Origin: Pirellula staleyi DSM 6068
GTDB lineage: Bacteria > Planctomycetota > Planctomycetia > Pirellulales > Pirellulaceae
Length of the DNA: 32,000 nt
Assembly: GCA_000025185.1 (NCBI GenBank)
Contig: CP001848.1
Span: forward strand, 2,310,001 to 2,342,000
Reading direction: 5' to 3'
The stretch's first letter is position 1, and each line of letters opens with the position of its first letter. Position numbers and translations under genes: made by a program. Shown here piece after piece: positions 14,881-32,000 of the stretch. The notes under the pieces were generated by a model, which searched no databases, was not told the DNA's origin, and saw nothing but the letters and a program-made list of their open reading frames with translations.

Positions 14881-15381
14881 ATGATTCTGCTCAAACTTGA
14901 TGGTGTTACCGGCGACTCGCAGATCCCAGGTTACGAAGACTGGATTGCCTGCACCAGCTGCAGCTGGAACATTGAACGTACGTTTTCGGAATCGGCCAAG
15001 GCTGGTACCCTCGACGTGAACGTCGGTGTTGCTGAAATCCCACCAATTACCCTCGGCAAGTCGTTTGACGTGGCGAGCGTCTACCTGATGCAAAACGCCA
15101 TCGCTGGCGGTGCTCTGGGAACCGCTGCTCAGATCCACTTCCTCAGCACTTCGGGTACCGAAGGCACTGGCGCTATCTACCTCGAATACAAACTGTTCAA
15201 TCCGATTGTGGCCAGCTGGAGCATCAGCGGCGACGAAGATGAACGTCCGACGGAAGAAGTGACCCTGTGGTACTGGAAGATTTGGATGCAGTACTACGCC
15301 TCGACCGACGGTAAGAACTACGTCGGTAAGGGTAACAAGGGTTGGGATCGTACCAAGAACAAGTCGTGGGACGGCAAGTAA
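14881..15381 (+). CDS. hcp: Hcp (TssD) tube protein
   Basis: 166 aa. MILLKLDGVTGDSQIPGYEDWIACTSCSWNI matches the Hcp opening (F/LKIDGI.GES......WIE..SFSW.). AAAGGA lies upstream of the ATG. It sits in the tssC/tagJ neighbourhood. Confidence 0.88.
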   Translation: MILLKLDGVTGDSQIPGYEDWIACTSCSWNIERTFSESAKAGTLDVNVGVAEIPPITLGKSFDVASVYLMQNAIAGGALGTAAQIHFLSTSGTEGTGAIYLEYKLFNPIVASWSISGDEDERPTEEVTLWYWKIWMQYYASTDGKNYVGKGNKGWDRTKNKSWDGK

Positions 15382-15410
15382 TTTGCCCCTCCCCGATAGG
15401 CAGCGGGTTC

Positions 15411-15436
15411 TCTCGGGAAGCCCACGTTTCCCGAGA
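15411..15436 (+). other. Stem-loop 30 nt after the hcp stop (9-11 bp)
   Basis: TCTCGGGAA (15411-15419) pairs with TTCCCGAGA (15428-15436). There is no U-tract afterwards. Confidence 0.5.
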
Positions 15437-15487
15437 TCTCTGCTGCCAATCAGTGTCAGATTTCGGCTGACTGGACGAGTGGCTATC

Positions 15488-15515
15488 GCAGCGTGAGCGT
15501 TTTTTGCTCCGCTGC
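15488..15515 (+). other. Stem-loop in the hcp-tagJ spacer (10 bp, one bulge, U-rich loop)
   Basis: GCAGCG(t)GAGC - GTTTTTT - GCTCCGCTGC. Confidence 0.45.
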
Positions 15516-15561
15516 TGGATGACAGCTCGACGCCGAATCTAGCGACCTTCGCTCGAGAATA

Positions 15562-15596
15562 TCGCCTGCCAGTTCCAACTCGGAGTTGGCAGGCGA
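15562..15596 (+). other. Long stem-loop or palindrome in the hcp-tagJ spacer (15 bp including 2 G-U, 5-nt loop)
   Basis: TCGCCTGCCAGTTCC - AACTC - GGAGTTGGCAGGCGA. No U-tract follows, so it is not a classical terminator. Confidence 0.55.
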
Positions 15597-15716
15597 CAAC
15601 TCTCCTGGATCCTTCAGCGTGCTGCACGAAGCGCACGTCAGTCGAGCCTCTGCGATACTTCCATCGCTGGCTTGTCATCAACATGATTATTACGCTGATT
15701 TACTTCGCGAGAGAAA

Positions 15717-16658
15717 GTGAGCCCTTCGGTGGACGCCCTCAGTACCCTTCGCGATGGCAATCTCGACACCGCTCTAGCCGAATTGAGCCAGAAAATCCGC
15801 AGCAATCCGGGTGATCCCAAGCTGCGAGTTTTTCTCTTTCAGTTGCTTTGCGTTCAAGGCCAATGGGATCGCGCTCTCACGCAACTCGGCGTCTCGGGCG
15901 ATATGGACCCGATCGCGATGCCGATGGTGCAGACCTATCGGGAAGCGATTCGCTGCGAACTTTTGCGAAGCGACATTTTCACCGGCAAACGCACACCGCT
16001 GATCTTCGGCGAACCGGAGGAATGGATCGCGCTGCTGATGCAGTCGCTCGAGCAAACGGCGAAGGGTCACATCGCTGAGGGGGAAACGCTCCGCCAACAA
16101 GCGTTCGAGCTCGCTCCCGTCACTTCCGGCGTGATCAAAACGGCGAATCGAGTTCCCGAAGGGGAGAGCGAGTCGTTCACCGAAACCCCGTTTGAATGGC
16201 TCTCGGACGCCGATTCGCGTCTCGGTCCGATCATCGAAGCGATCGTGAACGGCCGCTATTACTGGATTCCTCTGCATCGCATTCGCCGCATCGATGTCGA
16301 GAAACCCGAGGATTTGCGCGACTACGTTTGGACGCCGGTCCATTTCCAGTGGGCCAATGGTGGTGAAGTGGTGGGGCTCGTCCCCACACGCTATCCGCTG
16401 ACCTTCAACAGCACCGATCCACTGCTGAAGCTCTCGCGCAAGACTGAGTGGAACGAAATTGCCGAAGGGGTTTACCACGGCCTCGGGCAACGAATGCTCA
16501 CCACCGATGCCGGCGACTATGCTCTGATGGATGTGCGACAAATTCGCCTCGATGTGGCTCTCGATGCGTCGATGAAGAGCCCTGAAGAAGCGGTCGCCCT
16601 CGACGTTTCGCCAGAACTACGGGCCGGTAGCGTCGACGGAGAGTCCACGGATGGCTGA
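15717..16658 (+). CDS. tagJ: TagJ / ImpE (SciE)-family T6SS accessory protein
   Basis: N-terminal TPR-like LRDGNLDTALAELSQKIRSNPGDPKLRVFLFQLLCVQGQWDRALTQL and C-terminal GRYYWIPLHRIRRIDVEKPEDLRDYVWTPV match the ImpE family. The GTG start is uncertain. The stop overlaps the tssE start (ATGGCTGA). Confidence 0.8.
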   Translation: MSPSVDALSTLRDGNLDTALAELSQKIRSNPGDPKLRVFLFQLLCVQGQWDRALTQLGVSGDMDPIAMPMVQTYREAIRCELLRSDIFTGKRTPLIFGEPEEWIALLMQSLEQTAKGHIAEGETLRQQAFELAPVTSGVIKTANRVPEGESESFTETPFEWLSDADSRLGPIIEAIVNGRYYWIPLHRIRRIDVEKPEDLRDYVWTPVHFQWANGGEVVGLVPTRYPLTFNSTDPLLKLSRKTEWNEIAEGVYHGLGQRMLTTDAGDYALMDVRQIRLDVALDASMKSPEEAVALDVSPELRAGSVDGESTDG

Positions 16659-17154
16659 GTTAACCACGCAAGAGCGTTTGCAGCCGTCGCTCCTCGATCG
16701 GCTTACTGATGAAGAGCCGCAGCAAGGACAGGAATCTCGCAATCGGCGCGTGTTGTCGCTGCAACGTTTGCGCGAAAGTGTGCTTCGCGATCTTGCCTGG
16801 CTCCTGAACACCACGAATCTCGGTGACCGAACCCTGGAGTACGAAGCCCCGTTTGTTGAATCGTCGGTGCTGAACTATGGGGTGCCCGATTTCGCGGGGC
16901 TCACCAGCAGCAGCGTCGACGGGGGCCAGTTGCAGCGACTGGTGAAGCAAGCGATCTGGAATTTCGAGCCCCGCATTCTGCGCGAGACACTCGAAGTGAA
17001 CATCAGCGCCGATGGTGGCCGGATGGACCAAAACAGTTTGATTTTTGAGATTTCGGGAGAGCTCTGGGCCCAGCCGGTGCCGCTCGAATTGTTCCTCAAG
17101 ACCCAAGTAGACCTCGAAACTGGAAGTATCTCGATTGCCGACTTTGTCCGTTGA
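16651..17154 (+). CDS. tssE: TssE (gp25-like) baseplate protein
   Basis: LQPSLLDRLTDEEP ... SVLRDLAWLLNT ... SVLNYGVPDFAGL are typical of the TssE/GPW-gp25 family. 167 aa. An 8-nt overlap with tagJ suggests translational coupling. Confidence 0.88.
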   Translation: MAELTTQERLQPSLLDRLTDEEPQQGQESRNRRVLSLQRLRESVLRDLAWLLNTTNLGDRTLEYEAPFVESSVLNYGVPDFAGLTSSSVDGGQLQRLVKQAIWNFEPRILRETLEVNISADGGRMDQNSLIFEISGELWAQPVPLELFLKTQVDLETGSISIADFVR

Positions 17155-17219
17155 TTAGCAGGGGCAGCCCCTCGTTTTCATCGCCGCGCAGTCAGGTTGG
17201 AAGGAACGCTCCCTCAGTC

Positions 17220-19097
17220 ATGGATCCTCGGCTCCTCAAATTCTATAACCGCGAACTACAGCATCTCCGTGAGATGGGGGCGGAGTTCGCATCGGAATTC
17301 CCCAAGATCGCCGGACGATTGACCCTCGATGGTTTCGAGTGCGTCGATCCCTACGTCGAACGATTGCTCGAGGGCTTTGCATTTCTTGCTGCTCGCGTTC
17401 AGCTCCGCATCGATTCGGAGTTCCCTCGCTTTACGCAGCATTTGTTTGAAATTGTCTACCCGCACTATTTGGCTCCGACCCCCTCGATGGCTGTGGTGCA
17501 GTTCGAGCCCGACTTGAAGGTCGGCGCGCTCGCCGATGGCTACACCATTCCGCGAGGTGAGTCGATTCGCAGTTTGCTTGGCAAAGGGGAAACGACTGCC
17601 TGCGAATATCGCACTGCCCAAGACTGCACGCTGTGGCCCCTCGAGATCGTCGAGGCGGAGTATTTCAGCCGCGATGCCGCTTCGATCGAAGTGCCGAATG
17701 TGGCAGGGCTCAAGGCGGGCATTCGATTGCGGATTCGTACGACCGCTGGCCTCAAGTTCAAAGACACCAAACTCGATCGTCTGACGTTGTTCCTGCGTGG
17801 CGCTGGCGATTTGCCGATGCACCTCTATGAGCAAATCTTGGGCAATCCGCTTGGATTTGTCGTGCGTCCGACGACCCGCCCGATCCCGTGGCAAGTGGTG
17901 AATGAAGCGAGCAAGATCCAGCCTCGCGGCTTTGCCGAGAACGAAGCGCTCCTCCCTTACGGCCCTCGATCGTTTCAAGGCTATCGGCTGCTGCAAGAGT
18001 ATTTTGCTTTTCCCCAGCGGTATCTGTTTGTCGATCTGACCGGGCTGAAGTCGGCCGTATCGCGCTGCGAAGAGCAAGAACTCGACATCATTATTCTGCT
18101 GTCGCGAGCCGAACAGCGTCTCGAGTCGTATGTCTCGGCCGAGTCGTTTTCGCTTCACTGCACCCCGGCGATCAACTTGTTTCCCAAGTCGGCTGATCGT
18201 ATTCACCTGAGCGACAAGTTCAGCGAGCATCACGTCATTCCCGATCGCACCCGTCCGATGGACTTCGAGGTGTACGAAGTGAAGGGAATCCAAGGCTACG
18301 GCGCTGAAGTCGAAGATGAACAGACGTTCTTCCCGTTTTATGCCTCGAGCGACGTGAACTCGGGACACGACGGGATGGCCTACTACACGGTGCATCGTTT
18401 GCCACGTGTGCTCTCGACGAATCAGAAAAAATACGGCCCCCGCTCGAGCTATATCGGCTCCGAAGTTTTTGTCTCCCTCGTTGATGGTCGTGAAGCGCCA
18501 TACTCTCACAATCTGCGGCAACTGGCCATCGATACGCTTTGCACGAATCGCGATCTTCCGCTGCAAATGCCGGTGGGAAAGAGCACGACTGATTTCACGC
18601 TCGATACCGGAGCGCCGGTGAATTCGGTTCGCTGCTTGTCGGGCCCCACACGCCCCAAACCCTCGCACAGCTTTGGCGAAGGGGATTTCGTGTGGCGCTT
18701 GATCAGCCACTTGTCCCTGAATTATTTGTCGCTGGTCGATGGCGACGAGCGTCATGGGGCGGCTGCGCTCCGCGATATCTTGCGGCTCTATGGCGATGCC
18801 AATGACGCTGCGATTCGGAAGCAAATCGAAGGTGTGCGATCGGTGGCCGCCCGTCCAATCACTCGCCGCATTCCGACTCCGGGGCCGATCACGTTTGGTC
18901 GTGGCCTCGAGATTGCAATCACCTGCGATGAAGCGGCGTTTGAAGGAAGTGGCGTCTTCCTGCTCGGCGCTGTGCTCGAACAATTTTTCGCCCGTTACGT
19001 TTCGATCAACTCCTTTACTGAAACGGTCGTCCACTCGAGCGACCGTGGCACTGTGATGCGATGGCCAACGAGAATCGGACGTCGACACACCGCGTAG
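17220..19097 (+). CDS. tssF: TssF baseplate protein
   Basis: I prefer the ATG at 17220 (GGAAGGA upstream). MDPRLLKFYNRELQHLREMGAEFASEFPKIAGRL is the canonical TssF N-terminus. 625 aa. Confidence 0.9.
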   Translation: MDPRLLKFYNRELQHLREMGAEFASEFPKIAGRLTLDGFECVDPYVERLLEGFAFLAARVQLRIDSEFPRFTQHLFEIVYPHYLAPTPSMAVVQFEPDLKVGALADGYTIPRGESIRSLLGKGETTACEYRTAQDCTLWPLEIVEAEYFSRDAASIEVPNVAGLKAGIRLRIRTTAGLKFKDTKLDRLTLFLRGAGDLPMHLYEQILGNPLGFVVRPTTRPIPWQVVNEASKIQPRGFAENEALLPYGPRSFQGYRLLQEYFAFPQRYLFVDLTGLKSAVSRCEEQELDIIILLSRAEQRLESYVSAESFSLHCTPAINLFPKSADRIHLSDKFSEHHVIPDRTRPMDFEVYEVKGIQGYGAEVEDEQTFFPFYASSDVNSGHDGMAYYTVHRLPRVLSTNQKKYGPRSSYIGSEVFVSLVDGREAPYSHNLRQLAIDTLCTNRDLPLQMPVGKSTTDFTLDTGAPVNSVRCLSGPTRPKPSHSFGEGDFVWRLISHLSLNYLSLVDGDERHGAAALRDILRLYGDANDAAIRKQIEGVRSVAARPITRRIPTPGPITFGRGLEIAITCDEAAFEGSGVFLLGAVLEQFFARYVSINSFTETVVHSSDRGTVMRWPTRIGRRHTA

Positions 19098-20098
19098 AGC
19101 TGCTCAAAGCTCTCGCGGCGGCGCCCCATCAATTCGATTTCTATCAGGCACTGCGTCGTATCGAAGCAGTGTTTAAGGACAAGCCGCGCATAGGTGAATC
19201 GCTGCGATTGGCCGATGATCCCGTTCGTTTTGCCCAAGAGCCGAGCTTGATCTTCGCGCCATCGACCATCGCCGCGCTCGAACAAGGAAAACAGGGACAC
19301 CCGCCCCGCCTGGTTGTGCGTCATGTTGGCATGTTTGGACCCAACGGTCCCCTTCCACTGCACCTCACCGAATATGCCCGCGATCGACTTCGCAATTCGC
19401 AAGATCCGACATTCGTTCGGTTTGTCGACATCTTCCATCATCGCATGTACTCGCTGTTCTACCGGGCCTGGGCCGTAGCACAGCCCACCACGCAGTTCGA
19501 TCGTCCAGAATCCGATCGCTTTGCCGACTATGTTGGTTCGCTCTTCGGCATCGGCATGGCGTCGATGAACGATCGCGATGCAATGCCCGATTTGGCCAAG
19601 CTCTACTTCAGTGGGCGCTTTGTCTGTCAAACGCGTCATGCCGAAGGTTTAGCGGCGATTTTGAATGCGTTCTTCTCGATCCCGATGGTCCTCAAAGAGT
19701 TCGTGGGTCAGTGGCTGCCGCTGCCGATGAACTGCCGCACCAATCTCGGTCTCGGCAGTGATACCGGTGTGCTGGGGATGAGCGCGACGATTGGCGAACG
19801 GGTGTGGGATTGTCAGCAGAAGTTTCGCATCGTGGCTGGTCCGATGGATTTCCGTCAGTACCGGCGTTTGCTACCCCAGGGAGAAAGTCTCGCGTCGCTC
19901 ATTTCGGTGGTCGACAACTACGTCGGTCTGGAACTCGATTGGGATGTGAATCTGATTCTGAAAAAGGAAGAAGTTCCCCCGATCCAGCTCGGAAGTATGG
20001 GGCAACTTGGGTGGACCTCGTGGCTGAAGAGCCGCGAGCGTGAAGAGGACGCTGCAGATTTGATTTTGCGTCCCCGGGCGGAACGGACTGCTGCTTAG
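19061..20098 (+). CDS. tssG: TssG baseplate protein
   Basis: LAAAPHQFDFYQALRRIE ... DDPVRFAQEPSLIFAPSTI matches the TssG opening. 345 aa. It overlaps tssF by 37 nt. Confidence 0.88.
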   Translation: MANENRTSTHRVELLKALAAAPHQFDFYQALRRIEAVFKDKPRIGESLRLADDPVRFAQEPSLIFAPSTIAALEQGKQGHPPRLVVRHVGMFGPNGPLPLHLTEYARDRLRNSQDPTFVRFVDIFHHRMYSLFYRAWAVAQPTTQFDRPESDRFADYVGSLFGIGMASMNDRDAMPDLAKLYFSGRFVCQTRHAEGLAAILNAFFSIPMVLKEFVGQWLPLPMNCRTNLGLGSDTGVLGMSATIGERVWDCQQKFRIVAGPMDFRQYRRLLPQGESLASLISVVDNYVGLELDWDVNLILKKEEVPPIQLGSMGQLGWTSWLKSREREEDAADLILRPRAERTAA

Positions 20099-20287
20099 AT
20101 CCTCATGAAACGAACCATTTCAGAGAAAATTCTGCCGACTGAACAGTTCGGGACCAAACGTGTCATGAGTTAACTCAATAGTAACTCTTGCGTATGTCCT
20201 GAGAAAATCAGTCGTTGTTACGAAGAAACTTTTTACAAGTTATTTAGCACTAGAAGTCACTGCAAAGTCTCTCGGAGAAACTGCCAC

Positions 20288-23035
20288 ATGGCTGAGATTA
20301 GTCGCGTAGCCCTTTTTGGAAAACTTAACAGCCTCGCTTATCGCGCGATTGAGGCCGCCACCGTCTTTTGCAAGATGCGTGGCAATCCTTACGTCGAGTT
20401 GGCTCACTGGCTGCATCAGATTCTGCAGCTTCCCGATTCTGACGTGCACAAAATCATTAAGCAGTTCAATCTCGAGCCAAGTCGTTTGGCGCGTGATCTG
20501 ACCGAAACACTCGATCGTTTTCCACGCGGCAGTTCCAGCATCTCGGACCTTTCGAGCCATCTCGAAGATGCGACTCAGCAAGGCTGGGTCTATGCCACGC
20601 TGATGTTCAAGGACTCGCAAGTCCGGACTGGTTACTTGATCGTCGGCATGATCAAAACCAAAACGCTGAACAACGCACTGCTGAGCATTTCGAAAGAATT
20701 TGGCAAAATCAACGCCGATACGTTGATCGACAAGTTTGCTGAAGTGGTGGCAGGCTCGCCCGAAGATTCGCTCCGCGCCAGCGATGGAACCCAGGTCGGT
20801 GGCGGCGCTGTTCCTGGCGAAGCGAGCGGCGCGATGGCTCCCGCTGCGATGGGCAAGCAAGAGGCGCTCAAGCAATTTTCGATCGACCTGACCGAGCGTG
20901 CTCGCAAAGGGGAGATCGACCCGATTGTTGGTCGCGACGAAGAGATTCGTCAACTTGTCGACATTCTGATGCGTCGTCGTCAGAACAACCCAATCCTCAC
21001 CGGTGAAGCAGGTGTGGGTAAAACTGCGGTGGTCGAAGGTTTTGCCCTCCGCATTGCTTCGGGCGATGTTCCTCCGTCGCTGAAAGATGTTTCGCTTCGC
21101 TCGCTCGACATCGGTCTCTTGCAGGCCGGCGCGAGCATGAAGGGCGAGTTCGAAAATCGCCTTCGTCAGGTGATCGAAGAAGTGCAATCGAGCGAACAGC
21201 CGATCATTCTGTTTATCGATGAAGCTCATACTCTCATCGGAGCTGGTGGAGCCGCTGGAACTGGCGACGCTGCTAACTTGCTCAAGCCAGCACTGGCTCG
21301 CGGAAAGTTGCGCACGGTCGCTGCGACGACCTGGGCCGAATACAAGAAGCACATCGAAAAAGATCCTGCTCTCACGCGCCGCTTCCAAGTGGTTCAAGTC
21401 GGTGAACCAAGCGAAGACAAAGCGATTTTGATGATGCGAGGCATGGCCTCGACCCTCGAGCAGCACCATCGCGTGCAGATTCTCGACGAAGCGCTCGAAG
21501 CCTCGGTTCGTCTCTCGCATCGCTATATCCCCGCTCGTCAGTTGCCCGATAAGTCGGTCAGCTTGCTCGATACCACGTGTGCTCGCGTGGCGATCAGTCA
21601 GCACGCTGTGCCTGCAGAAGTCGAAGATTGCCGCCGCAAGATCGAAGCTCTCGAAGTCGAGCAGGGAATCATCGCCCGCGAAAAAGCTGTCGGTGTAGAT
21701 ACCACCAAACGCGAAAAAGAAGTCGATTCAAAACTAGCCATCGAGCGTGAGCGTCTGAAGGGGCTTGAGCAGCGCTGGACCGACGAAAAGACGCTGGTCG
21801 ACGAGATTCTCGACATTCGCGGCAAGCTCCGCGGTCAAACGGGCAAGGTCGAGGGGACGCATAGCAAACTCGAAAAAGCTGCTGACAAGGCTGCCAAAGA
21901 AGCACCACCTGTAGCGGCTCCTACGCCTCCGCTCACCGAAGCCGAACGGGCTCCGCTGCTGGCAAAACTCACCGAACTGCAAGCCAAGCTCACCGCCCTG
22001 CAAGGCGAATCGCCACTGATTCTTCCCACGGTCGACGAGCAAGCGGTCGCTTCGGTCGTGGCCGACTGGACCGGCATTCCGGTCGGTCGAATGGTGAAGA
22101 ACGAAGTCGAAGCTGTGCTCAAGTTGGCCGAGACCCTCGGTCAGCGCGTGATTGGCCAAGACCATGCGATGAAGATGATTGCTCGCCGCATTCAAACTTC
22201 GCGTGCCCAGCTCGAGAATCCAAACAAGCCAATCGGCGTATTCTTGCTCGCCGGCACGTCGGGTGTTGGTAAAACCGAAACCGCTCTCGCTTTGGCCGAA
22301 GCTCTTTATGGTGGCGAACAGAACGTCATCACCATCAACATGAGCGAGTTCCAAGAGGCTCATACCGTGAGCACCTTGAAGGGTTCGCCTCCCGGTTACG
22401 TGGGCTACGGCGAAGGTGGTATTCTCACCGAAGCCGTCCGCCGCAAACCTTACAGCGTGGTGCTCCTCGACGAAGTCGAAAAGGCTCACGGCGACGTGCA
22501 CGAACTCTTCTTCCAAGTCTTCGATAAAGGCTGGATGGAAGATGGCGAAGGACGCGTGATCGATTTCAAGAACACGCTCATCCTGCTGACGTCGAATGCC
22601 GGTAGCGACTTGATCATGAACATGTGCAAAGATCCGGAACTGCTTCCCGATCCTGAGGCCATTGCCAAGTCGCTGCGCGATCCGCTGCTGAAGGTCTTTC
22701 CCGCAGCATTGCTCGGCCGCCTCGTGACCATTCCTTACTATCCGCTCAGCGATTCGATGATCGCTGCGATCACTCGTTTGCAGCTGCGTCGCATCGAGAA
22801 GCGAATCGGCGTCAATCACAAGGTTCCGTTCACCTACAGCGACGAAGTGCTCAAGCTCATCGTCAGCCGCTGCACGGAACTCGAGAGCGGTGGTCGTATG
22901 ATCGACTCGATTCTCACCAACACAATGCTCCCCGCGATCAGCGAAGAGATTCTCAAGCGGATGATGGTGGGTAGCGCGGTGAAGAAAATCGAAATCACCG
23001 CGAAAGGTAGCGAATTCCACTACAACTTTGATTAG
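20288..23035 (+). CDS. clpV: ClpV (TssH) AAA+ sheath-recycling ATPase
   Basis: 915 aa Clp/Hsp100 architecture: a ClpV-type N-domain, two Walker A motifs (GEAGVGKTAVVEG and GTSGVGKTETALALA), a middle coiled coil and a C-terminal small domain. GGAGAAA lies upstream of the ATG. Confidence 0.93.
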   Translation: MAEISRVALFGKLNSLAYRAIEAATVFCKMRGNPYVELAHWLHQILQLPDSDVHKIIKQFNLEPSRLARDLTETLDRFPRGSSSISDLSSHLEDATQQGWVYATLMFKDSQVRTGYLIVGMIKTKTLNNALLSISKEFGKINADTLIDKFAEVVAGSPEDSLRASDGTQVGGGAVPGEASGAMAPAAMGKQEALKQFSIDLTERARKGEIDPIVGRDEEIRQLVDILMRRRQNNPILTGEAGVGKTAVVEGFALRIASGDVPPSLKDVSLRSLDIGLLQAGASMKGEFENRLRQVIEEVQSSEQPIILFIDEAHTLIGAGGAAGTGDAANLLKPALARGKLRTVAATTWAEYKKHIEKDPALTRRFQVVQVGEPSEDKAILMMRGMASTLEQHHRVQILDEALEASVRLSHRYIPARQLPDKSVSLLDTTCARVAISQHAVPAEVEDCRRKIEALEVEQGIIAREKAVGVDTTKREKEVDSKLAIERERLKGLEQRWTDEKTLVDEILDIRGKLRGQTGKVEGTHSKLEKAADKAAKEAPPVAAPTPPLTEAERAPLLAKLTELQAKLTALQGESPLILPTVDEQAVASVVADWTGIPVGRMVKNEVEAVLKLAETLGQRVIGQDHAMKMIARRIQTSRAQLENPNKPIGVFLLAGTSGVGKTETALALAEALYGGEQNVITINMSEFQEAHTVSTLKGSPPGYVGYGEGGILTEAVRRKPYSVVLLDEVEKAHGDVHELFFQVFDKGWMEDGEGRVIDFKNTLILLTSNAGSDLIMNMCKDPELLPDPEAIAKSLRDPLLKVFPAALLGRLVTIPYYPLSDSMIAAITRLQLRRIEKRIGVNHKVPFTYSDEVLKLIVSRCTELESGGRMIDSILTNTMLPAISEEILKRMMVGSAVKKIEITAKGSEFHYNFD

Positions 23036-23221
23036 TCTTGCGAAATCCCAGTCGATCGCGGTGGAAAGGCTTTCTTTCCACCGCCTCGGCTGAAATTCCA
23101 AGATTCCAGCGCCACCAACGAACTAGAATCGCGCGAAGGCATTCCCTTTCGCGCGATTTTGCATAGCTACTTCCTACTCTATCGCTCCACACGACCTTGC
23201 AACCAGCTGAGAGGCTCCTTT

Positions 23222-24301
23222 ATGGCCAGCAGTACGAAAGTGAAGTTTGACAAAAAGGGAAACCTTTCGGTCGAAAATGGAAACCTGCTGGAGAGCGCCC
23301 GGAAGGACTTCAAAGAATGCCTGAAGATCAATGCGTTCATCGTGAGTGTTGAAGTGCCGATGGACGAGAAAGTGACGAACGAAAAAGAGATCATCGAGCA
23401 GGTGACCGAAGGACTGGATGAAATTGAACGCCAACTCTACGACTTCCTTAAGGATTTGAATGAAAGGGTCGAGAAGCTCCTCAAGGAAGAGAAAGCTGGC
23501 AAGAAGACGGCTGCCGATGAAGCGAAAAAAGCGGTGGATCAGACCGAGAAAAAAATCAAAGATGTCGCCGACGAACTCGGTGTTTTTGTTCGCAAAACGG
23601 TGCAAAAGGAAGTGAGTCGACAGCTGGGGGGCAAAAAACTTCAACTTCGCTCGACCAGTCGCAACACCTTCCGCGGCGTTGATTTACAGAAGTTCATCTT
23701 TGAAGGTGGATCGTCCGATGCAGAGAACAGCCCCTTCTTCCTTGAAGTGGGTAAGACGATGAGCACGATGGGAAAAGAGATCTTCAAAAAGGCTGCGGAA
23801 GAGAAGACACAGCGAGGTGAAATTGTAGGTGAACTCAATACCTACGTCGCCAAATTCGCCGAGGCCAAGAAGGCGAACACCGCACTCACGATGTCGGAGT
23901 TTTACAAGGCGAATGCCAAATTGGTGAAAAGCGTCGAAGATAGCGGAAAGAAATACTCCGACTTTTTGGCAGCTTACAAAGACGCGATTGAGAAAATTGA
24001 GGCAGAGTTTGCCAAGCTCGAAACGCTCATCAAATCCGACGACGAGCTAAAGAAAGATTCGAACGTCAAAAAGATCACCAAGAGCTTCACGGATGCTGCG
24101 AAAACGATCGTCGAAATTGTTGATCCCCGGACCAAAATGATCACCTCGACGATGAAGACGCTCAAGTCGGCCGTCGTTTATAGCACCATCTCTGACCAGG
24201 CATCGGACTTAGAGAAACTCAAAGGCGTTACCAAGTCGGCAAAAGCAATCGAAGAAGCTGGTAAGGAATTCGAAGCGATGGGAAAAGCGATGGACAAGTA
24301 G
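23222..24301 (+). CDS. Hypothetical Lys/Glu-rich, predicted all-helical protein (359 aa), no signal peptide
   Basis: I prefer the ATG at 23222 (GAGAGG upstream). The ORF is uninterrupted, with heptad-like K/E/A-rich sequence (EKLLKEEKAGKKTAADEAKKAVDQTEKKIKDVADEL). I recognise no family. It lies immediately 3' of clpV and is followed by a terminator. Confidence 0.7.
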   Translation: MASSTKVKFDKKGNLSVENGNLLESARKDFKECLKINAFIVSVEVPMDEKVTNEKEIIEQVTEGLDEIERQLYDFLKDLNERVEKLLKEEKAGKKTAADEAKKAVDQTEKKIKDVADELGVFVRKTVQKEVSRQLGGKKLQLRSTSRNTFRGVDLQKFIFEGGSSDAENSPFFLEVGKTMSTMGKEIFKKAAEEKTQRGEIVGELNTYVAKFAEAKKANTALTMSEFYKANAKLVKSVEDSGKKYSDFLAAYKDAIEKIEAEFAKLETLIKSDDELKKDSNVKKITKSFTDAAKTIVEIVDPRTKMITSTMKTLKSAVVYSTISDQASDLEKLKGVTKSAKAIEEAGKEFEAMGKAMDK

Positions 24302-24393: not shown

Positions 24394-24438
24394 AAAACCC
24401 AGCTGGCGAATCAATCGCGAGGTGGGTTTTTTGTTGTT
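24394..24438. terminator. Bidirectional intrinsic terminator between convergent genes
   Basis: AAAACCCAGCTGGCGA - ATCAA - TCGCGAGGTGGGTTTT forms 14 bp with two G-G mismatches. It is flanked by a T-rich run on the plus strand (TTTTTTGTTGTT) and an A-rich run upstream (T-rich on the minus strand). It lies about 93 nt from each flanking stop codon. Confidence 0.7.
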
Positions 24439-24522: not shown

Positions 24523-25077
24523 TTACGTATTCTCTGCAGGGGCTTCTTCTTCGTCAGGCTGGAGCACAAAGAAGTATTCAGAGCAGAGATTGGGCAATCG
24601 CTGCGGAAGATCGGCCAGTTCGAGTGGCTCGCCCGAGAGATCTTCGGGTTCGACAAAGTCGTAATCGATCGGCATGTCGTCGCCAGTGGCGTTGACGTAG
24701 GCATCTTCGGCCAGAGTTAGGATGTCGGGCAGATAGAGATCGTCGATCATCTGCTCATCTCCCGCCATGCTGTCGGGATCGGCGACCACTTGCTCGAAAA
24801 ACTGCTGTCCCTGCGAGATAAGCCAACCACGAAACCCGTGGAAGTCGTCTTCGTCGCAGCGCTCTTTCAGGATGACGAAAATCGCCCCGGAAAGATTGTA
24901 GGTGTAAGCCTTCCAGTACAGATCGCGCATGATCCGCTGAAAGCCCACGATCTCTTCGGGGGGAAGTTCCTCGAGCAAGTCTTGTAGCTCGTCGAGCAGC
25001 TCTTGTTTTTCATCGTCGCGTCCCATCGATGCCATCGTGGCTTCGTTGATCAGCGACCAGAATTTCGTCTCGTCCAT
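24523..25077 (-). CDS. DUF4240-like protein
   Basis: MDETKFWSLINEA ... LPPEEIVGFQRIMRDLYWKAYTYNL ... CDEDDFHGFRGWLISQGQQFFEQVVADPDSMA resembles, from memory, the DUF4240 pattern (FW.II ... sp.EI..F ... Y.W.LW.AAY.I.GGCSDDGF.YFR.WLI.QG...Y..A..DPDSLA). The C-terminal tail is acidic. It is the last gene of the minus-strand operon. Confidence 0.6.
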   Translation of the reverse strand: MDETKFWSLINEATMASMGRDDEKQELLDELQDLLEELPPEEIVGFQRIMRDLYWKAYTYNLSGAIFVILKERCDEDDFHGFRGWLISQGQQFFEQVVADPDSMAGDEQMIDDLYLPDILTLAEDAYVNATGDDMPIDYDFVEPEDLSGEPLELADLPQRLPNLCSEYFFVLQPDEEEAPAENT

Positions 25078-25214: not shown

Positions 25215-28200
25215 TTATGGATCCTTCGGCTGTGCGTCGGGACCTAGGGCGAGCATCGAAGTCTCGGCATTCGTGCCGAGTTCCGAGATCTTGGTGGTGG
25301 TTTCGTTGAGCTCGGCAACCAGTTGATCGAGGATTTCTTTCACACGGTTGGCCTTGTCAGGGTCACCGAGTTTACCGGCAGCCTCTGCTCGACGTGGCAT
25401 CAGCGAAAGGGATTTGATCAGCAACGAAGCAGGTCCAACGAGCGATGGTGCTTCTTTCGAGGCAGCCTTGAGAACCTTCATCAGTTCGGCACCAGCGCCG
25501 GTGGAGTAGTCGGTGATATCCTGCACGCTGCGGCCGGTGGTGCTTCCCACGGCCGATTGCGCCGTGCCGATGGCATCGGTGATTCGCTTGGCAGCGGTCG
25601 TGGTTTTCTTGAAGTTCAAAGCGGCTTTCACACGAGCTGCTTTGTCCCCTTCGATCGCAGCGAGCGTTTTTCGCGACTCGCTCTTGGCTGCCGCCGACAA
25701 ATCGTTGAGGTAGTCCTTGAACTCGGGGAATTCTCGATCCCCGGTCGGACCCGTTGCCAGCGGTGTGTAGCTATCGAGTGCCGTGGCCAGAATCATCAAG
25801 TTCTTCGAATGCGTCACCCATTCGTCGTAGGTATCGACCGTCGAGATATCGAGGCTCACCACCACTTTGGCCGATGTTTCGACGAGCTTGAAGCCGTTGT
25901 CGATCGAAGCCGTGGGGGAGGGCGACTTGAGTACGAAATTGTTCTTCGGATTGCTGGCTGCTTCTTTGTTGGCCATCCACGAGGCGAGTGTCATCGGCGC
26001 ACCAGCTTCTGGGGCAAAGCGAGTGACCACGCCAACCACTTGGATGTCGTCGGAGAACTTGGCTTCGAGGAAGCGGACCACCTTCTCGGCGCTTGTGTTC
26101 TCATCGGCGAGCACCGCATCGTTGAGATTGCAGCTGCGGAGGGCTTCGCGAGCAAACGGATCGTTCATTTCGAGCGCGCCGTAAGCGACAGCATACTTGG
26201 CAAGGGTCGCGTTGCTCTTGAGCGACTTCACAACCAGCACGCGGTCGCGCGGGTTATCGAGCGCTTTGCGATACTTGGCCCAGGCTCGTTTCACCTTCCT
26301 CTCTTGGAACTTGCGGCTGAGGAAGTCCTTGGCCTGAGCGAATGCCTCGAGAGCACCGTTGGCTGCTTTCAGCGCGGCACCAGCGGCAGCTCCATAGCCC
26401 GAGAGGTCGGCAGCAGCGGCACCGGTAATCAAGATGGCCTGGCCCAGGGCCACAGCGGCATCGATGACGTCGTTGGTGAGTTGTCGCTTGAGTTCGCTCA
26501 CTTGTGCCAGCAAAGCAAAAGCTTGCGGGCTGGCAGCTTTCTTAGCGTCGGAAACAAGTGCGGTGAATGTGCAGAGCTCTTGGCTGCGGCGAACAGCAGC
26601 GACGACGTTCATGGCGAATTGCTTGGCCTTGAGCACACCACCCAGCTGCGGAACGATCAGCGTGACGACGCCACCTACAGCATCCAAAATGCCGTTGAGC
26701 AGCGCGATTTGAGCTTTGTCAGCTTCGATCTGTGCGATCAGTTTATCGATATCGTACAGGTCCGAGAGGAGAGCCATATCTTCGTCGTCGGCACCCACAC
26801 CTACACCCATCGCCAGCGAGAGACTCTTGCAGTAGGTCTCGTGAGCTTCTTCGAGTTCGGCGTTGGTTTGTTCGGCACCCGCTTCGATCGCGAGCTTCTC
26901 GATCGCTTCAGGATCGGGAGCAGTACCAATGAGTTCGCTGAGGTTTTTGGTGATTCCCGCGATATCGATACCTTCGATCTTCTCGGTCTCTCCCTCTTGT
27001 TCTTTGGTGAGCTCCTTCACCTGACGATCGTATTCAGGATCACCTTCGGCGAGCCCCTCTTTCTCGAGCTTTTCTTTGAGATCGAGAAGATCGGGGTAGT
27101 GCTTCATGAACTTGACGAGGTCTTTGGTCCCTTGCTTCACCTCGGTATCGACGATGGCACCAATCTTGGCGAGCAAGAGCTTGGTGTTCACGGGAGTGGC
27201 TTGCAAGAGATCGAAAATCTCTTTGCCAGCCATGCCGGAGCTGACCTTGCTTTTGATTTGTGCGCCAACGGTGTCGAAGATCTTGCTGAACTTGTCGTCC
27301 TTGGTTTTGGCCGAGATCGACGAGCCGATGACGCCGAAGGCTGCTTCGAGAGCGTCGCCAATCAAGTCGCCAGCTTCGCCATTGCTCCGCTCCGAGAGCT
27401 TTTTGACGACAAGTCCGGTGTTGGCGACTGTCAGAAACGCGGCTTTGGAGACGTCGCCCCAAGGTTCGGGAACAGCAGCTCCTAGGATGGCACCGATGTT
27501 GGTGGTGCAACCCTTCAAATCCTTGGCGAGTGCGTTAGAAAGGAGATTGGCACCTGCCCGAGCGCACTTGGTGGCAAGTTCCAGGATCTCTTTGGCTTTA
27601 GGTCCGGTGCCGACGATCGACAGAACGACGTCGACCACTGAAGCGCCGATGCCGAGTACTTCGTCAGCATCTTGCAGCAAGCCTCGCGCGGTAGCAAAGC
27701 GTTCTTCTTCCTCGCGAGCCTTCACTGCACAGCGTTCGCGGTATAGGGCATTGGCACCTTCCCACAGCTGCAACACGCGGCTGAACTCTTGCGGGCATTG
27801 ATCCTCGGAGATGATCCGCTCGCGAACGAGGGGAGTCCAAATCTCCTCCATCAATTCATTGGGAGTGAACTTGGCGTCGCCGTTGTCGCGAATCTCGTTG
27901 GTAAGGGCCATGAGCTGATCCATGACCAGCTTGAGCGCCTGCAGTTGTGCGTCGGTGGGGCCCTTACCAGCCACACGACGATCGCCGTCGTGGACTTCAC
28001 TGTACTGCTTGTCGACCTCGTTTCCTTGGGTCTTCGTGCGCTTGGTTGTCGAGCCGGGTAAGCCTTCACGTTTGACGACATATTTCAGGTCAGTCGTTTT
28101 TGAAATCTCGGCCTTTTGCAGTTCGAGGAGATCACGCACCTTCTTCAAGGCTTCGTCTTTGGCTTGACGCGCTGTTTCAAAATCGTCGGCCTTTTCGGCG

Positions 28201-28469
28201 ACTCCCGGAATTCCCGCTGCTGCGAGGGCTTCCTTGATTTTGGCGATCTCGGCCTTCTTCGATTCGTCGAGCTCGGTCCCCTTGGCCAGCTCTTCGTCGA
28301 ATTCCTTCACCTTTTTGAGGGCTTCGCGGGTATCCTGCGGCGCTCCATCGACTTCGATGTTGGCATTCCACGGAACTTCCACCCCCAGCTGACGCGACAG
28401 CCATGCTTTCTGAGCAGGGTCGAAACCAGTTTTCTTCGAGACTGGAGGTGCGGTAGTGGGAGATGCCAT
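25215..28469 (-). CDS. Hypothetical 1084-aa helical protein with internal Gly/Ala-rich hydrophobic helix pairs
   Basis: Long uninterrupted ORF with GAGGAT 7 nt upstream of the ATG and no signal peptide. It is K/E/A-rich with hydrophobic segments at aa 271-290, 324-356, 588-613 and 668-706. I recognise no family. Confidence 0.75.
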   Translation of the reverse strand: MASPTTAPPVSKKTGFDPAQKAWLSRQLGVEVPWNANIEVDGAPQDTREALKKVKEFDEELAKGTELDESKKAEIAKIKEALAAAGIPGVAEKADDFETARQAKDEALKKVRDLLELQKAEISKTTDLKYVVKREGLPGSTTKRTKTQGNEVDKQYSEVHDGDRRVAGKGPTDAQLQALKLVMDQLMALTNEIRDNGDAKFTPNELMEEIWTPLVRERIISEDQCPQEFSRVLQLWEGANALYRERCAVKAREEEERFATARGLLQDADEVLGIGASVVDVVLSIVGTGPKAKEILELATKCARAGANLLSNALAKDLKGCTTNIGAILGAAVPEPWGDVSKAAFLTVANTGLVVKKLSERSNGEAGDLIGDALEAAFGVIGSSISAKTKDDKFSKIFDTVGAQIKSKVSSGMAGKEIFDLLQATPVNTKLLLAKIGAIVDTEVKQGTKDLVKFMKHYPDLLDLKEKLEKEGLAEGDPEYDRQVKELTKEQEGETEKIEGIDIAGITKNLSELIGTAPDPEAIEKLAIEAGAEQTNAELEEAHETYCKSLSLAMGVGVGADDEDMALLSDLYDIDKLIAQIEADKAQIALLNGILDAVGGVVTLIVPQLGGVLKAKQFAMNVVAAVRRSQELCTFTALVSDAKKAASPQAFALLAQVSELKRQLTNDVIDAAVALGQAILITGAAAADLSGYGAAAGAALKAANGALEAFAQAKDFLSRKFQERKVKRAWAKYRKALDNPRDRVLVVKSLKSNATLAKYAVAYGALEMNDPFAREALRSCNLNDAVLADENTSAEKVVRFLEAKFSDDIQVVGVVTRFAPEAGAPMTLASWMANKEAASNPKNNFVLKSPSPTASIDNGFKLVETSAKVVVSLDISTVDTYDEWVTHSKNLMILATALDSYTPLATGPTGDREFPEFKDYLNDLSAAAKSESRKTLAAIEGDKAARVKAALNFKKTTTAAKRITDAIGTAQSAVGSTTGRSVQDITDYSTGAGAELMKVLKAASKEAPSLVGPASLLIKSLSLMPRRAEAAGKLGDPDKANRVKEILDQLVAELNETTTKISELGTNAETSMLALGPDAQPKDP

Positions 28470-28482
28470 CAGCAGATCCTCG

Positions 28483-28508
28483 AATTAAAAAGCGCTCAGA
28501 GAGCGCTT
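28483..28508 (-). terminator. Short intrinsic terminator or attenuator hairpin between the two giant genes
   Basis: On the minus strand, AAGCGCTC-TCT-GAGCGCTT (8-bp stem) is followed by TTTAATT. It lies 90 nt after the upstream stop and about 14 nt before the SD of the 1084-aa gene. Confidence 0.4.
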
Positions 28509-28597
28509 GGCAAACTGTCGGAAGTCGGGAACAAAACGAAACAGAGTCAAACAAGAGACAGTCAAACGGGACGAGCAAAATCGTCTCGCGTGGAGAA

Positions 28598-31500
28598 CTA
28601 TTCCACCGCTCGTTGCAAGTTCAGATCGAGATCGTTGATGGCGCGGAGCAGTGGAAGACCAAGCACCGAGCCACCATCGCGGCTCCAAGGGTTGTTTTCC
28701 ATGATCACCGAGCGGAAGAGGGGACCTTTCTGCACCATGTCGCGATAGCGACGAAGTTTGGCGAGTGCCTGTTCGCGGAGCTTTCGCTTCTTGGCCAGGT
28801 CGGCTTCTTTCTTCTTACCACCGGGGGAGTCGCTGGCGAGCACTAACAGCTCTTGCTGGAAGGCAGCTGGGTCGAGCTGATCCTTCATGCGAGTGGTGAC
28901 CTTCGTGTTGAAGGTCCGCGTGATATCGGCGGGGGTGACATCAGGAGTGCCATCGGCGCTCTTTTCGATCGCCTTCTCGAGACCGCCGAGCGAGTCGAGC
29001 AGGGTCTTGATGCCATTGGTCCAGCGAGGATTGAGCTCTTTAAGATGTTTCTTGCCACGATCGGTGGTTTGGCTTGCCAGCGGATCTTTGTCGAGCTGAA
29101 GAGCGAGTTGATAGGCCAGTACCATCGACCGACGAGCTCCGGCGATGTCCTTTTTCTTGTACATCTTGGCCGCTTCTTTCGCGAGTGAATCGATGCGCGA
29201 CAGCTCGGTCTTGTCGATTCCGCTGGACTTCTTCAGCTTCTCTTTGAGTGGGCCATAGAGAAGCTTGGTGTCGTCGTATTCCCCCTTAAGCTTCTGCTCG
29301 GCGTCGAACTTTTCCTTCTCTTTTTTGGCATTCTTTTTCGACTCATCGAGCAGCTCATTACCGGTTCCTTGCGCTGCATCTTCGATGGCAAATTGCAGCT
29401 CTTCGGCGAGGGCGATGAGCTGCTTATCGGCGATCTTAAGTGCCTCTTCCGACTCGCCAGCGGAGATCTGCTGCAGCAAGTCCTTGGCTTGCTGATAGAT
29501 CGGCACATTGGTCGCCGAAATCGTTTCATTCGAGACCCGCAGCAGGGTTGTGCAGTACTCGCCCGCGACGTCGGCCATGATCTTTTCGGCCTTCTTCACC
29601 AGCAGGCTACGCTGGGACTTGATCTTGTCGAGCAGGGCAAGTAGCTCGTTTTTGGCGGTGGTGAGTTCGCCCGTGATGAGCGTTTCCCACTTGGTGTAGT
29701 TCTTCGACATGGTGCCAGGACCATCTTTGCTGATGCCATCTTTGGCTTCGGTGAGACGTTCCAGCAGCTTGCCATGTTCCTGAGTGAGTGTCTTCTTGAG
29801 CTCTTTGACGTTGATTGCCTTAAAGAGAGCTGAGAGGAGATCTTTCAGCTTGCCGTAGTCGGTTTTCGGAGCGCGAGGATTGATACGGTCGGAGTAGTAC
29901 TTGAAGGCCTCTTCCGCTTCGCGTGTCATTTCGATAACGCGGGCGTTGAGATCGCGTAGCACGCCGACACTGTCAGCTTTGGCGTTGAGCTCGATCTTTT
30001 TCAGTTCTTCGGAGGCATCGATGTGCCAGGTGGCTTCACGGAAGGTGAGCCAGCGTTCGACCTTCAAAAGCTTCTGCAGAGCTTTGATGTTGTTTTCGAG
30101 TGTGAGCCGTTCGTTGGGAACCGCATTGGTGGCGGTGGTGGCGCGGGTCGTGGCGTCGTTGATCACATCGTCGAGCGGTGCCGACTTGTCGAGATAGTTT
30201 TGCTTGTGCGTGGCATACATCGACGAATCGTTTTCGACGACTGCATCTTGGATCAGTTGCAAGACAGCTCGGGCTTCGTTGACTTTGACGTTCCAGCCAT
30301 TGATCAAAGCCTTATCGCCGACAGGATCAAAATCGAGTCCCTGGTAGGTAAACACGGCGTCGGCCGCTGCTTTAATCTTGGCAGCGAGTGGTTTGACGAA
30401 CTTGCTGAGATCTTCGGAGTCGTCGATATCCTTCTGCATTCCCGCGACTTTGAGGTCGTCTTGGCAGTCGAGGACTTTGTTCTTGAGGTCGGTAAATTTC
30501 CCCTCGAACGTCGAGATGAGAGAATTGGCTTCCCCCGAGGTGGCGACGTTTTTGGCTTTGAGGAACTCTTCATAGAGCTTGTTAAAGTCATCGCGGAAGG
30601 TGAGTGCGAACGATTGATTTTGGCCAGCTAGTCCATCGACAATCCGCTGAACTTCTTCCTTCGCAGCCAGGAATTCGGCTGCCTTGGGATTGATGATATT
30701 AAAAGCCTTGAGGACTTCACGGGCCTCGGTTTGGGCTTCGTCGAACTGGCTGATGCCGGTGGCGTAGTCCTTCGTCCGTTCGGTGGTGGCAATCACGTCG
30801 GCGAGTTTGGCGAGCGCCATGTTCATGAACGGGCCGTCCGTGATGGCGGCGAGTTCGGTTTTGATTTTGTTGTACTGATTGGTGCGCAGCTCTTGCCAGC
30901 CGCGATAGTTGCTCTCGACCGAGGCGAGCCGTTTGCGAAGTTCAGCGACGAAGAGTTCGTTGACCTGAGCGCCGGCGACATTCCACTGCAGGCGGAGGGC
31001 GGCATCTTGGCCGGTGTAATAGGCATTGATCAAATCGCGACGATCGGTCTCGGGGAGCATCTCTTCGATCGAAACGATGAGGGCGCGAGCATCCTTTTTG
31101 TGTTTGTTGTAGATCCCTTCACCCTTGTCGTAGGCATTTTTGGTGAGGGTCCACTTGGCGTTGAGTTCGGCCAGCTTTTCCTTTTGAGCAGCGCGATCGG
31201 AAGCGGCATACCAGTCGAGTTTTTTGAAGGGTAAGTAGGCTTCCGTGATGATCTTGGCGGTATCGGCGTCGTAGTTGCCGAAGGATTTGACGAGTTCCAT
31301 TCCTTTCGCGAGGAGCGCCTCGGCATCTTCGCAAATCTTCAGCTCAACTTTTTTTCCTTTGAGCGATTCTTTCGAGCGTTTGCGTTCAAGTTCTTTTTTG
31401 TCGACTTCAGTACTGAGTTCTTGCCCTACATTTTCGAGCTCGACGGTTTGCAGCTTCATCTTCTCGCGAAGTTTTTCAAGGTGCGCCTCGGCTTGCTTGA

Positions 31501-31870
31501 TGGGGGCTTCCCACAGCTTCTTCTCTTCCTTGGTTTGCTGCTTGATCGCGATCGTCGGCTGACGTTCTTTGAGTTCCTTGAGGAACAGCTCTTGAGCGGC
31601 GTATTCCTTGCTGATGACCTGCATGTCCCACGCCAGATTGACGTAGCGATCTTGCAGGTCTTGCATTTCGGGGGTCAGATCGCCGAACGTAAGCTGCTCG
31701 AGCTTCTCGAGTTTGTCTTTACCAAGCGTGGCAGCGTTTTTAAGTTTGCTGCGATCCCCGGTCCCCACTATTTTCATGGCCAGGATTTTGCGAGCTTCGA
31801 CGCACCACTTGTAAGCCGTGGCTACGGTGACTTGTTTTTTGTCTTCGGGAGTAGGTGTTCCGACGGACAT
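28598..31870 (-). CDS. Hypothetical 1090-aa all-helical Lys/Glu-rich protein
   Basis: Long uninterrupted ORF. I prefer the ATG at 31870, preceded by GGAAGGAAG; the track's TTG at 31888 would place that SD inside the gene. There is no signal peptide or TM segment, and the composition is coiled-coil-like throughout. I recognise no family. Confidence 0.75.
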   Translation of the reverse strand: MSVGTPTPEDKKQVTVATAYKWCVEARKILAMKIVGTGDRSKLKNAATLGKDKLEKLEQLTFGDLTPEMQDLQDRYVNLAWDMQVISKEYAAQELFLKELKERQPTIAIKQQTKEEKKLWEAPIKQAEAHLEKLREKMKLQTVELENVGQELSTEVDKKELERKRSKESLKGKKVELKICEDAEALLAKGMELVKSFGNYDADTAKIITEAYLPFKKLDWYAASDRAAQKEKLAELNAKWTLTKNAYDKGEGIYNKHKKDARALIVSIEEMLPETDRRDLINAYYTGQDAALRLQWNVAGAQVNELFVAELRKRLASVESNYRGWQELRTNQYNKIKTELAAITDGPFMNMALAKLADVIATTERTKDYATGISQFDEAQTEAREVLKAFNIINPKAAEFLAAKEEVQRIVDGLAGQNQSFALTFRDDFNKLYEEFLKAKNVATSGEANSLISTFEGKFTDLKNKVLDCQDDLKVAGMQKDIDDSEDLSKFVKPLAAKIKAAADAVFTYQGLDFDPVGDKALINGWNVKVNEARAVLQLIQDAVVENDSSMYATHKQNYLDKSAPLDDVINDATTRATTATNAVPNERLTLENNIKALQKLLKVERWLTFREATWHIDASEELKKIELNAKADSVGVLRDLNARVIEMTREAEEAFKYYSDRINPRAPKTDYGKLKDLLSALFKAINVKELKKTLTQEHGKLLERLTEAKDGISKDGPGTMSKNYTKWETLITGELTTAKNELLALLDKIKSQRSLLVKKAEKIMADVAGEYCTTLLRVSNETISATNVPIYQQAKDLLQQISAGESEEALKIADKQLIALAEELQFAIEDAAQGTGNELLDESKKNAKKEKEKFDAEQKLKGEYDDTKLLYGPLKEKLKKSSGIDKTELSRIDSLAKEAAKMYKKKDIAGARRSMVLAYQLALQLDKDPLASQTTDRGKKHLKELNPRWTNGIKTLLDSLGGLEKAIEKSADGTPDVTPADITRTFNTKVTTRMKDQLDPAAFQQELLVLASDSPGGKKKEADLAKKRKLREQALAKLRRYRDMVQKGPLFRSVIMENNPWSRDGGSVLGLPLLRAINDLDLNLQRAVE

Positions 31871-32000
31871 CGTTTCTTCCTTCCGCAACCTGAGGAATCA
31901 TCACGCAGTCGCCCGGCCATGAACGGAGTCATCGCCGCGGGCTCGTGGTGCCAAGTTGGTAACTTACAAGTGATCGTGGAGTTCGAAGCTGGCGAGCAAA

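Follow-up and report, generated by a model that had tools for sequence, protein, structure and literature searches.

A three-gene module of uncatalogued protein families beside a type VI secretion locus of Pirellula staleyi DSM 6068

The DNA studied here, called the window, is a stretch of 32,000 nucleotides of Pirellula staleyi DSM 6068 (contig CP001848.1, positions 2,310,001 to 2,342,000), which carries a type VI secretion system (T6SS) locus and, beyond it, two very large genes on the minus strand. An earlier note, made from the letters alone, had taken these two genes for an operon of helical orphan proteins and candidate giant T6SS cargo. Both genes, named B and A here, were found as consecutive open reading frames (ORFs) of 1090 and 1084 amino acids (aa), and together with a third gene, X, they form a module. 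Our results showed that X, B and A are three uncatalogued families that span phyla and are absent from Pfam, NCBIfam, PADLOC and the PDB sequences, and that their genomic linkage to T6SS and PAAR genes is non-random. In what follows, A, B and X denote the module proteins, X-B-A is the gene order, and L-numbers are the loci that were compared; L001 is the window's own locus on a longer contig, reaching past position 32000. On this contig the unit is composed of four genes, X, B, A and a DUF4240 gene, with X (491 aa) lying 188 bp upstream of B. The two-gene operon proposed earlier therefore does not hold, as X stands just past position 32000 and the orthologous X-B-A-DUF4240 unit recurs in other loci. 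The coordinates of all features are collected in Table 1.

Table 1. Positions of the module genes, their conserved parts and the neighbouring T6SS locus in the window
Feature	Position	Strand	Remarks
Gene A	25215-28469	-	1084 aa, ATG start; ORF
Gene B	28598-31870	-	1090 aa from ATG; mechanical ORF reaches TTG at 31888
Gene X	end at about 32059, outside the window		in L001: X 4936-6411, B from 6600
X-B spacer, in-window part	31871-32000	-	spacer 188 bp in all
DUF4240 gene	24523-25077	-	184 aa; Pfam PF14024, E=2.6e-36
Hairpin, then T-rich tail (TTTAATT), in the B-A spacer	28490-28508	-	stable, 8 bp
A, conserved block 1 (aa 195-247)	27729-27887	-	P213, R216, E222, S230, Y243 (72 members)
A, conserved core (aa 565-860)	25890-26777	-	region common to homologues in other phyla
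A, C-terminal helical extension (aa about 960-1084)	25218-25592	-	about 120 aa
B, C-terminal domain (about aa 860-1090)	28601-29293	-	about 230 aa; sole part recognisable across phyla
T6SS core	3772-23035		TssM-N, TssL, TssK, 668-aa gene, TssA, TssB, TssC, Hcp, TagJ, TssE, TssF, TssG, ClpV
K/E-rich helical orphan	23222-24301	+	359 aa; between clpV and the DUF4240 gene

The small gene lying head-to-tail with A had been read as DUF4240-like, and this was borne out by Pfam (125.1 bits against a cutoff of 27, with the full profile covered); its product is very acidic, with a net charge of -36. Neither A nor B has an N-terminal hydrophobic segment, in agreement with the reported lack of signal peptides, and neither matched any Pfam or NCBIfam model, so that the absence of an assignable family was also upheld. 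Family models were taken from Pfam, NCBIfam and PADLOC; Pfam was also run on 31 A members and 27 B members, and X was scanned against Pfam and PADLOC. The 31 A members gave zero family matches and the 27 B members two singleton noise matches only, and the PADLOC defence models gave noise only with the module proteins (E>=0.005). That A and B are not paralogues was supported by an hhalign probability of 9.8%, on which A-B paralogy was rejected; X-B paralogy was tested and rejected as well, and a search for internal repeats in A or B found none. B is basic or neutral in net charge, whereas A, X and the DUF4240 protein are acidic, a charge pattern that would fit a complex of these proteins. The hairpin in the B-A spacer could attenuate read-through from B into A, but it is absent from the relatives and is therefore probably incidental, and besides the ribosome-binding site no conserved RNA or regulatory elements were found in the module spacers.

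The A family is large and widely distributed. An exhaustive profile search returned 539 clusters at 50% identity, of which 386 reached E<=1e-30, with a typical length of 850-1250 aa, and genome and metagenome scans placed the family in at least seven phyla. The carriers include Planctomycetota (Pirellulales, Gemmatales, Singulisphaera), Verrucomicrobiota (Puniceicoccales), Acidobacteriota, Myxococcota, Desulfobacterota, Alphaproteobacteria and Betaproteobacteria, and those in the last two classes include the cultured strains Siccirubricoccus phaeus, Ideonella aquatica and Pelomonas sp. KK5 as well as a Qingshengfaniella megaplasmid. B and X likewise have recognisable homologues in most of the loci that carry A, and the label of orphans given in the earlier note does not hold. 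The indexed homologue search with B yielded one relative only, also when a profile was used, its candidate list having been filled up with K/E words of low complexity. A phage origin was rejected, no viral contig carrying the A family, and so was plasmid-borne mobility, the single carrier being a non-mobilisable megaplasmid. Literature searches on DUF4240, PF14024, Pirellulales T6SS and related topics found no description of A, B or X and no mention of DUF4240.

The three genes are inherited as a set. The order X-B-A is kept in about 60 loci; a B-type gene lies immediately upstream of A in nearly all of them, and an X-type gene usually precedes B. All-versus-all neighbour clustering identified X, B and A as the sole constant partners, found DUF4240 in one clade only and found no immunity gene conserved directly downstream, and no Pfam family recurred among 95 flanking ORFs. 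Orthologous X-B-A-DUF4240 units at 30-64% identity are present in five other Pirellulales-type loci. B orthologues in L004, L005, L009 and L011 are 30-57% identical, and DUF4240 orthologues (L004, L005, L008, L009, L011, L013 and L044) are restricted to the Pirellulales-type clade.

Linkage to T6SS was counted in 41 loci with at least 12 kb of sequence (38 plus L066-L068), those beyond the first survey having been picked solely by the length of the contig, and the loci were scored for T6SS genes no more than 10 kb from the module. Such genes were found in seven of the 41 loci, namely the window, L020, L043, L044, L046, L066 and L068, and in L043, L066 and L068 the module stands among the T6SS genes. 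L043 reads X-B-A-tssA-tssB-tssC-hcp-hcp-hcp on one strand, L066 has clpV and an IglG-like DUF4280 gene before X-B-A and then tssBC, and L068 has the order tssM (canonical, E=9e-214), tagF, pppA, B, A, X, M15 peptidase, ompA and ppkA. X-B-A-DUF4240 in L044 is followed by a PAAR gene 2 kb downstream and then by tssM/L/K, while in L046 tssC is 8 kb from the module. L020, from Puniceicoccales, carries a 97-aa PAAR gene divergent from X and no further T6SS gene nearby. The earlier note had worried that no delivery route was apparent; this is answered by the PAAR or PAAR-like gene within about 3.5 kb of the module in L020, L044 and L066, which in L066 is the DUF4280 gene, 1.7 kb upstream of X and about 7.6 kb upstream of A. 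In the A-core tree the linked loci are spread over four distinct branches, with unlinked loci in between, their A proteins are 24-35% identical and the guanine-plus-cytosine (GC) content of the loci ranges over 49-68%. With a chance expectation of one locus, which was estimated and not measured, the probability of five or more is 0.004, and the seven observed would be rarer still. The module stands at the clpV end of the cluster in the window and at the tssM end in L044, which has the same T6SS type with a shared 668-aa gene; the association therefore persists through rearrangement.

Several of these loci have particular features of their own. In L066, TssB (VipA) and TssC (VipB) domains occur in one 587-aa product (13507-15270, minus strand), either a fusion of the sheath genes or a gene-calling artefact. 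Directly downstream of A in L020 are two tandem paralogues (11370-13285; 293 and 319 aa, 40% identical), and a putative lipoprotein of 239 aa adjoins the PAAR gene; these could be locus-specific immunity-like genes. In L042, on the Qingshengfaniella alkalisoli plasmid NZ_CP042263, the module comes after two large hypothetical proteins and a type I secretion system (T1SS) pair of ATP-binding cassette (ABC) and HlyD proteins. RefSeq names the A protein of this locus (10138-13206) a 'type II toxin-antitoxin system VapC family toxin', but Pfam found no PIN domain in it and the name is probably a misannotation.

Residue conservation in A was assessed over 72 diverse members and tail length over 124 members. 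The core shared with homologues in other phyla carries the signature AW..YK.AL..P.DR....NPTLAKYA.AYGA...YLE....DD, and W730, N753, T755 and D808 are invariant among the 72. No conserved His or metal-binding motif was found in A, in which C780 is the sole partly conserved Cys (79%). The C-terminal extension occurs in about 20% of members (alignment occupancy about 0.2), that is, in the clade with DUF4240; past the equivalent of P903 the tail measures 35-75 aa in most of the 124 members and is a helical stretch of 100-236 aa in one clade. These 124 proteins do not show a conserved N-terminus joined to variable C-terminal toxin domains, as polymorphic toxins would. Near the N-terminus, residues 16-41 (28347-28424, minus strand) hold a Q..WL....G motif, with W23 conserved in 83%, followed by DG....T..AL..V..F; the motif superficially resembles the peptidoglycan-binding PG_binding_1, without support from Pfam.

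The claim that both proteins are helical throughout stands for A and is presumptive for B. The AlphaFold model of A, built on the 72-sequence alignment, is almost entirely helical, with a predicted local distance difference test score (pLDDT) of 80.9 and a predicted template-modelling score (pTM) of 0.66. Foldseek found no fold match for this model in the PDB (best E=0.24; template-modelling score (TM) at most 0.15 for the top-ranked and at most 0.33 over the 50 matches listed), and in BFVD the best match, at E=0.019, comprised generic tape-measure-like helices only. A vinculin/talin-like fold, suggested at E>=0.04 by a model from six sequences (pLDDT 57), was rejected, since it was gone with the better model. 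Remote-homology profiles of A, B and X against the PDB sequences matched designed helical repeats and coiled-coil noise only. Membrane segments were sought in the 72 members with a 19-residue window and a Kyte-Doolittle threshold of >1.6. Two hydrophobic helices of the window A, aa 586-615 and aa 667-690, lie within the conserved core, but no transmembrane-grade helix is conserved in the family, as 25 of the 72 have none and the best segment (600-619) occurs in 29%; nor did these members show the conserved C-terminal hydrophobic hairpin of VasX and the colicins.

B is rich in K, L, A and E and has family lengths of 764-1834 aa; it is presumably helical, judging from its composition and from coiled-coil-type noise matches. 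Its C-terminal domain, which has dense invariant alignment columns, gave BLAST matches in L013, L015, L019, L026, L030, L039 and L068, and outside this domain B is variable in both length and sequence. At its N-terminus X has a conserved domain of about 115 aa, which is followed by Pro-rich linkers and, at the C-terminus, by a helical domain of about 200 aa. The idea that the N-terminal domain of X is a promiscuous cargo marker was rejected, as it is confined to X proteins. In L024, from a Pseudodesulfovibrio metagenome-assembled genome, this domain is fused to a B-type protein in one ORF of 1331 aa (1618-5613), and this fusion supports a physical interaction of X and B.

The T6SS locus adjoining the module is genuine, its core genes being identified with Pfam and NCBIfam. 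The module had been described as facing clpV across a shared terminator, which was not the case: the 359-aa orphan separates the two, a hairpin at about 23060-23085 belongs to clpV itself, and a bidirectional terminator-like hairpin at about 24395-24430 divides the orphan from the DUF4240 gene. This orphan has no homologue in 60-plus other loci and gave coiled-coil noise matches (tails of ZorA and LmuB). The window TssM (3772-5448, minus strand) has 558 aa and matches the N-terminal IcmF-related_N part only, its similarity to the full TssM model being weak (E=7.6e-4, model positions 189-364 of 1168). Its homologue in L044 (17351-19432, minus strand) is similar, with 693 aa, and the Pirellulales-type T6SS seems to be without the periplasmic TssM domains; no TssJ was seen in it either. 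The 668-aa ORF (7916-9922, plus strand), divergent from tssK, has no Pfam or NCBIfam match, a local GC content of 62.6% and a strongly negative GC skew; since a homologue with 35-40% identity stands at the same position next to tssK in L044, it is a genuine gene of the T6SS cluster. The tssM end of the locus is flanked by a C-terminal sulfatase fragment (120-1172, plus strand) and a weakly FadL/TodX-like outer-membrane protein (1268-2602, minus strand), as would fit a planctomycete genome. On the far side of the module, about 1 kb upstream of X, L001 encodes a 501-aa protein (2419-3924, plus strand) that is weakly similar to AAA_16, contains the Walker-A motif GEKGSGKT and has hydrophobic helices in its interior; its homologue in L009 (17572-19137) is on the opposite side of the module, about 4 kb away.

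Taken together, the module is probably tied functionally to type VI secretion in the window genome and in several distant lineages. In the reading that we prefer, X, B and A would assemble into a cytoplasmic hetero-complex, which would be recruited to the T6SS spike tip (PAAR/VgrG) and then be expelled as cargo, and DUF4240 may be a chaperone or accessory subunit that binds the C-terminal extension found on A in this clade. As neither a conserved immunity gene nor a polymorphic toxin end is present, the target would be non-kin such as eukaryotic grazers, or the role a non-toxic one, rather than that of an antibacterial toxin. This reading of X-B-A as a T6SS-tied hetero-complex and immunity-less spike-tip cargo, with DUF4240 as accessory to the extra C-terminal helices of A, is put forward tentatively, at somewhat less than even chances. 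A broader statement comes close to an even chance, namely that X-B-A is an unrecognised, phylum-spanning, T6SS-associated tripartite complex whose fold has no solved relative, acting either as giant immunity-less PAAR-tip cargo, plausibly against protist grazers, or as an optional module of the T6SS apparatus.

A number of observations weigh against the cargo reading. In thirty-four of the 41 loci no T6SS gene lies closer than 10 kb, and the closest relatives with both flanks available (L004, L009 and L011) are among them; in five Pirellulales relatives the module stands amid unrelated genes, and tblastn with all T6SS proteins of the window found no match in the 30 genome loci of the first survey. 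In three loci exporters are found instead, with the T1SS ABC and HlyD genes directly upstream in L042 and full ABC exporters directly downstream of A in L014 and L016. Neither vgrG nor PAAR is present in the window, as the earlier note had remarked. MIX, FIX, PAAR fusion, DUF4123, DUF1795 and DUF2169 were unmatched in the window A and B, in the 31 A and 27 B members and in X, and no toxic or enzymatic domain was matched in A, B or their family members. The uniform architecture of A and its fixed order with B and X are like those of machinery more than those of effectors, and at about 300 kDa in all the load would be unusually heavy for a spike. The claims of the earlier note fared accordingly. 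Its central idea, a functional tie to the T6SS, gained real support, and its suspicion that the link was coincidental is weakened by seven scattered loci of varied arrangement; the link is real yet not obligate, as 34 loci have no T6SS gene near. The giant cargo itself stays a candidate, as no toxin domain, cargo marker or immunity partner was found; the likeness to an effector island failed on the uniform, non-polymorphic A; and placement at the variable edge of a T6SS locus does not hold as such, since in close relatives within the Pirellulales the same four genes lie amid housekeeping genes.

The first alternative, to which we give about one chance in four, is a cytoplasmic helical complex that works independently of the T6SS, as a scaffold or in association with nucleoid or membrane, and is found near T6SS genes through co-residence in accessory or competition islands. 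The flanks argue for it, 83% of the loci having unrelated and mostly housekeeping neighbours (ribosomal proteins, hemD, Tex, sarcosine oxidase), and the missing signal peptides, the unconserved transmembrane-grade helices and a fold resemblance of the generic helical-bundle kind all fit such a complex. Chance, however, hardly explains seven linked loci on scattered branches, three of them embedded among T6SS genes, and in three loci a PAAR or PAAR-like gene stands no more than 3.5 kb away.

Slightly less probable is an accessory scaffold of the T6SS, in which a non-secreted X-B-A complex would aid assembly, positioning or firing as a lineage-variable part of the Tag type. The fixed order, uniform architecture and conserved core are typical of machinery, the L043 module is co-oriented with and directly upstream of tssA-tssB-tssC, the L068 module sits between the regulatory genes pppA and ppkA, and neither a toxin domain nor an immunity gene was found. 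Against this, the module is missing from most T6SS loci and most module loci are without T6SS genes; it accompanies a truncated TssM in the window and L044 and a canonical TssM in L068, and therefore is not a substitute for a missing part; and the lone PAAR gene beside the module in L020 suits cargo better. The Tss and Tag family models had no match in A or B (Pfam, NCBIfam) or in X (Pfam, PADLOC), while the neighbouring T6SS genes matched strongly.

A secreted tripartite alpha-helical pore former, exported via whichever system is at hand (T6SS, T1SS or ABC exporter), is improbable. Three co-transcribed helical proteins, the two hydrophobic helices in the core of the window A and the exporter genes of L042, L014 and L016 would suit it. 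Against it, transmembrane-grade segments lack conservation in the family, the confident model of A did not match the folds of ClyA, Hbl, YaxAB or colicin-type toxins, the module proteins exceed known tripartite pore formers two- to threefold in size, and in L042 the two upstream hypothetical proteins hold the more usual position of a T1SS substrate.

Most of what is known about T6SSs was learned in Proteobacteria and from toxin-immunity pairs. If X-B-A is cargo, it would represent a class of multi-subunit effectors that is both new and very large, in environmental bacteria such as Planctomycetota, Verrucomicrobiota, Acidobacteriota and Burkholderiales, and if it is machinery, it would be an optional T6SS module not known before. 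The families, the core signature and the linked loci make the question of cargo versus machinery directly testable. The survey is also a caution that an 'orphan next to a T6SS' should not be read from one genome.

By the features that could be tested, A, B and X belong to none of the VasX-like, polymorphic-toxin, ClyA-type and Tss/Tag families. The ClyA-family tripartite toxins (AhlABC, Hbl, Nhe) have subunits of 350-450 aa with a conserved hydrophobic head. They share with the module a three-gene operon, all-helical proteins, the lack of a classical signal peptide and occurrence in Gram-negative bacteria; no ClyA-family chain was among the 50 Foldseek PDB matches listed, and A has no conserved hydrophobic hairpin. 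In binary and multi-protein T6SS effector modules, co-effector and effector need each other for secretion, and a marker such as MIX, a toxin domain and immunity are present. Adjacent non-homologous proteins inherited as a unit by T6SS genes are common to these modules and to X-B-A, which differs in its three subunits without marker, toxin domain or immunity. Bacteroidota TssN-TssR are lineage-specific structural membrane proteins of the T6SS that are present in every cluster of that lineage (PMC10781749). Here the likeness is that of unannotated genes recurring within the T6SS clusters of particular lineages, whereas X, B and A are without conserved transmembrane segments and are missing from most T6SS loci.

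VasX of Vibrio cholerae is a largely helical protein of about 1085 aa without a signal peptide, encoded beside T6SS genes, delivered by the spike and active against amoebae. Its N-terminus holds a PH domain and its C-terminus a colicin-like membrane domain, and the DUF4123 adaptor VasW and an immunity gene go with it. Compared by description and not by sequence, VasX is like the module proteins in size and T6SS context; its PH domain, colicin-like domain, adaptor and immunity gene were not found with the module, which is a fixed trio. Francisella PdpC and PdpD are domain-less proteins of >1200 aa, secreted by the T6SS and without immunity genes, and IglG (DUF4280) is the PAAR-like tip of that system. 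The likeness here lies in large domain-less proteins and in the IglG-like DUF4280 gene near the module in L066; no sequence relationship was detected, and the T6SSs studied here are of the canonical TssB/TssC type and not of the Francisella type. In size and context, the module proteins appear to be most like VasX or Francisella PdpC and PdpD.

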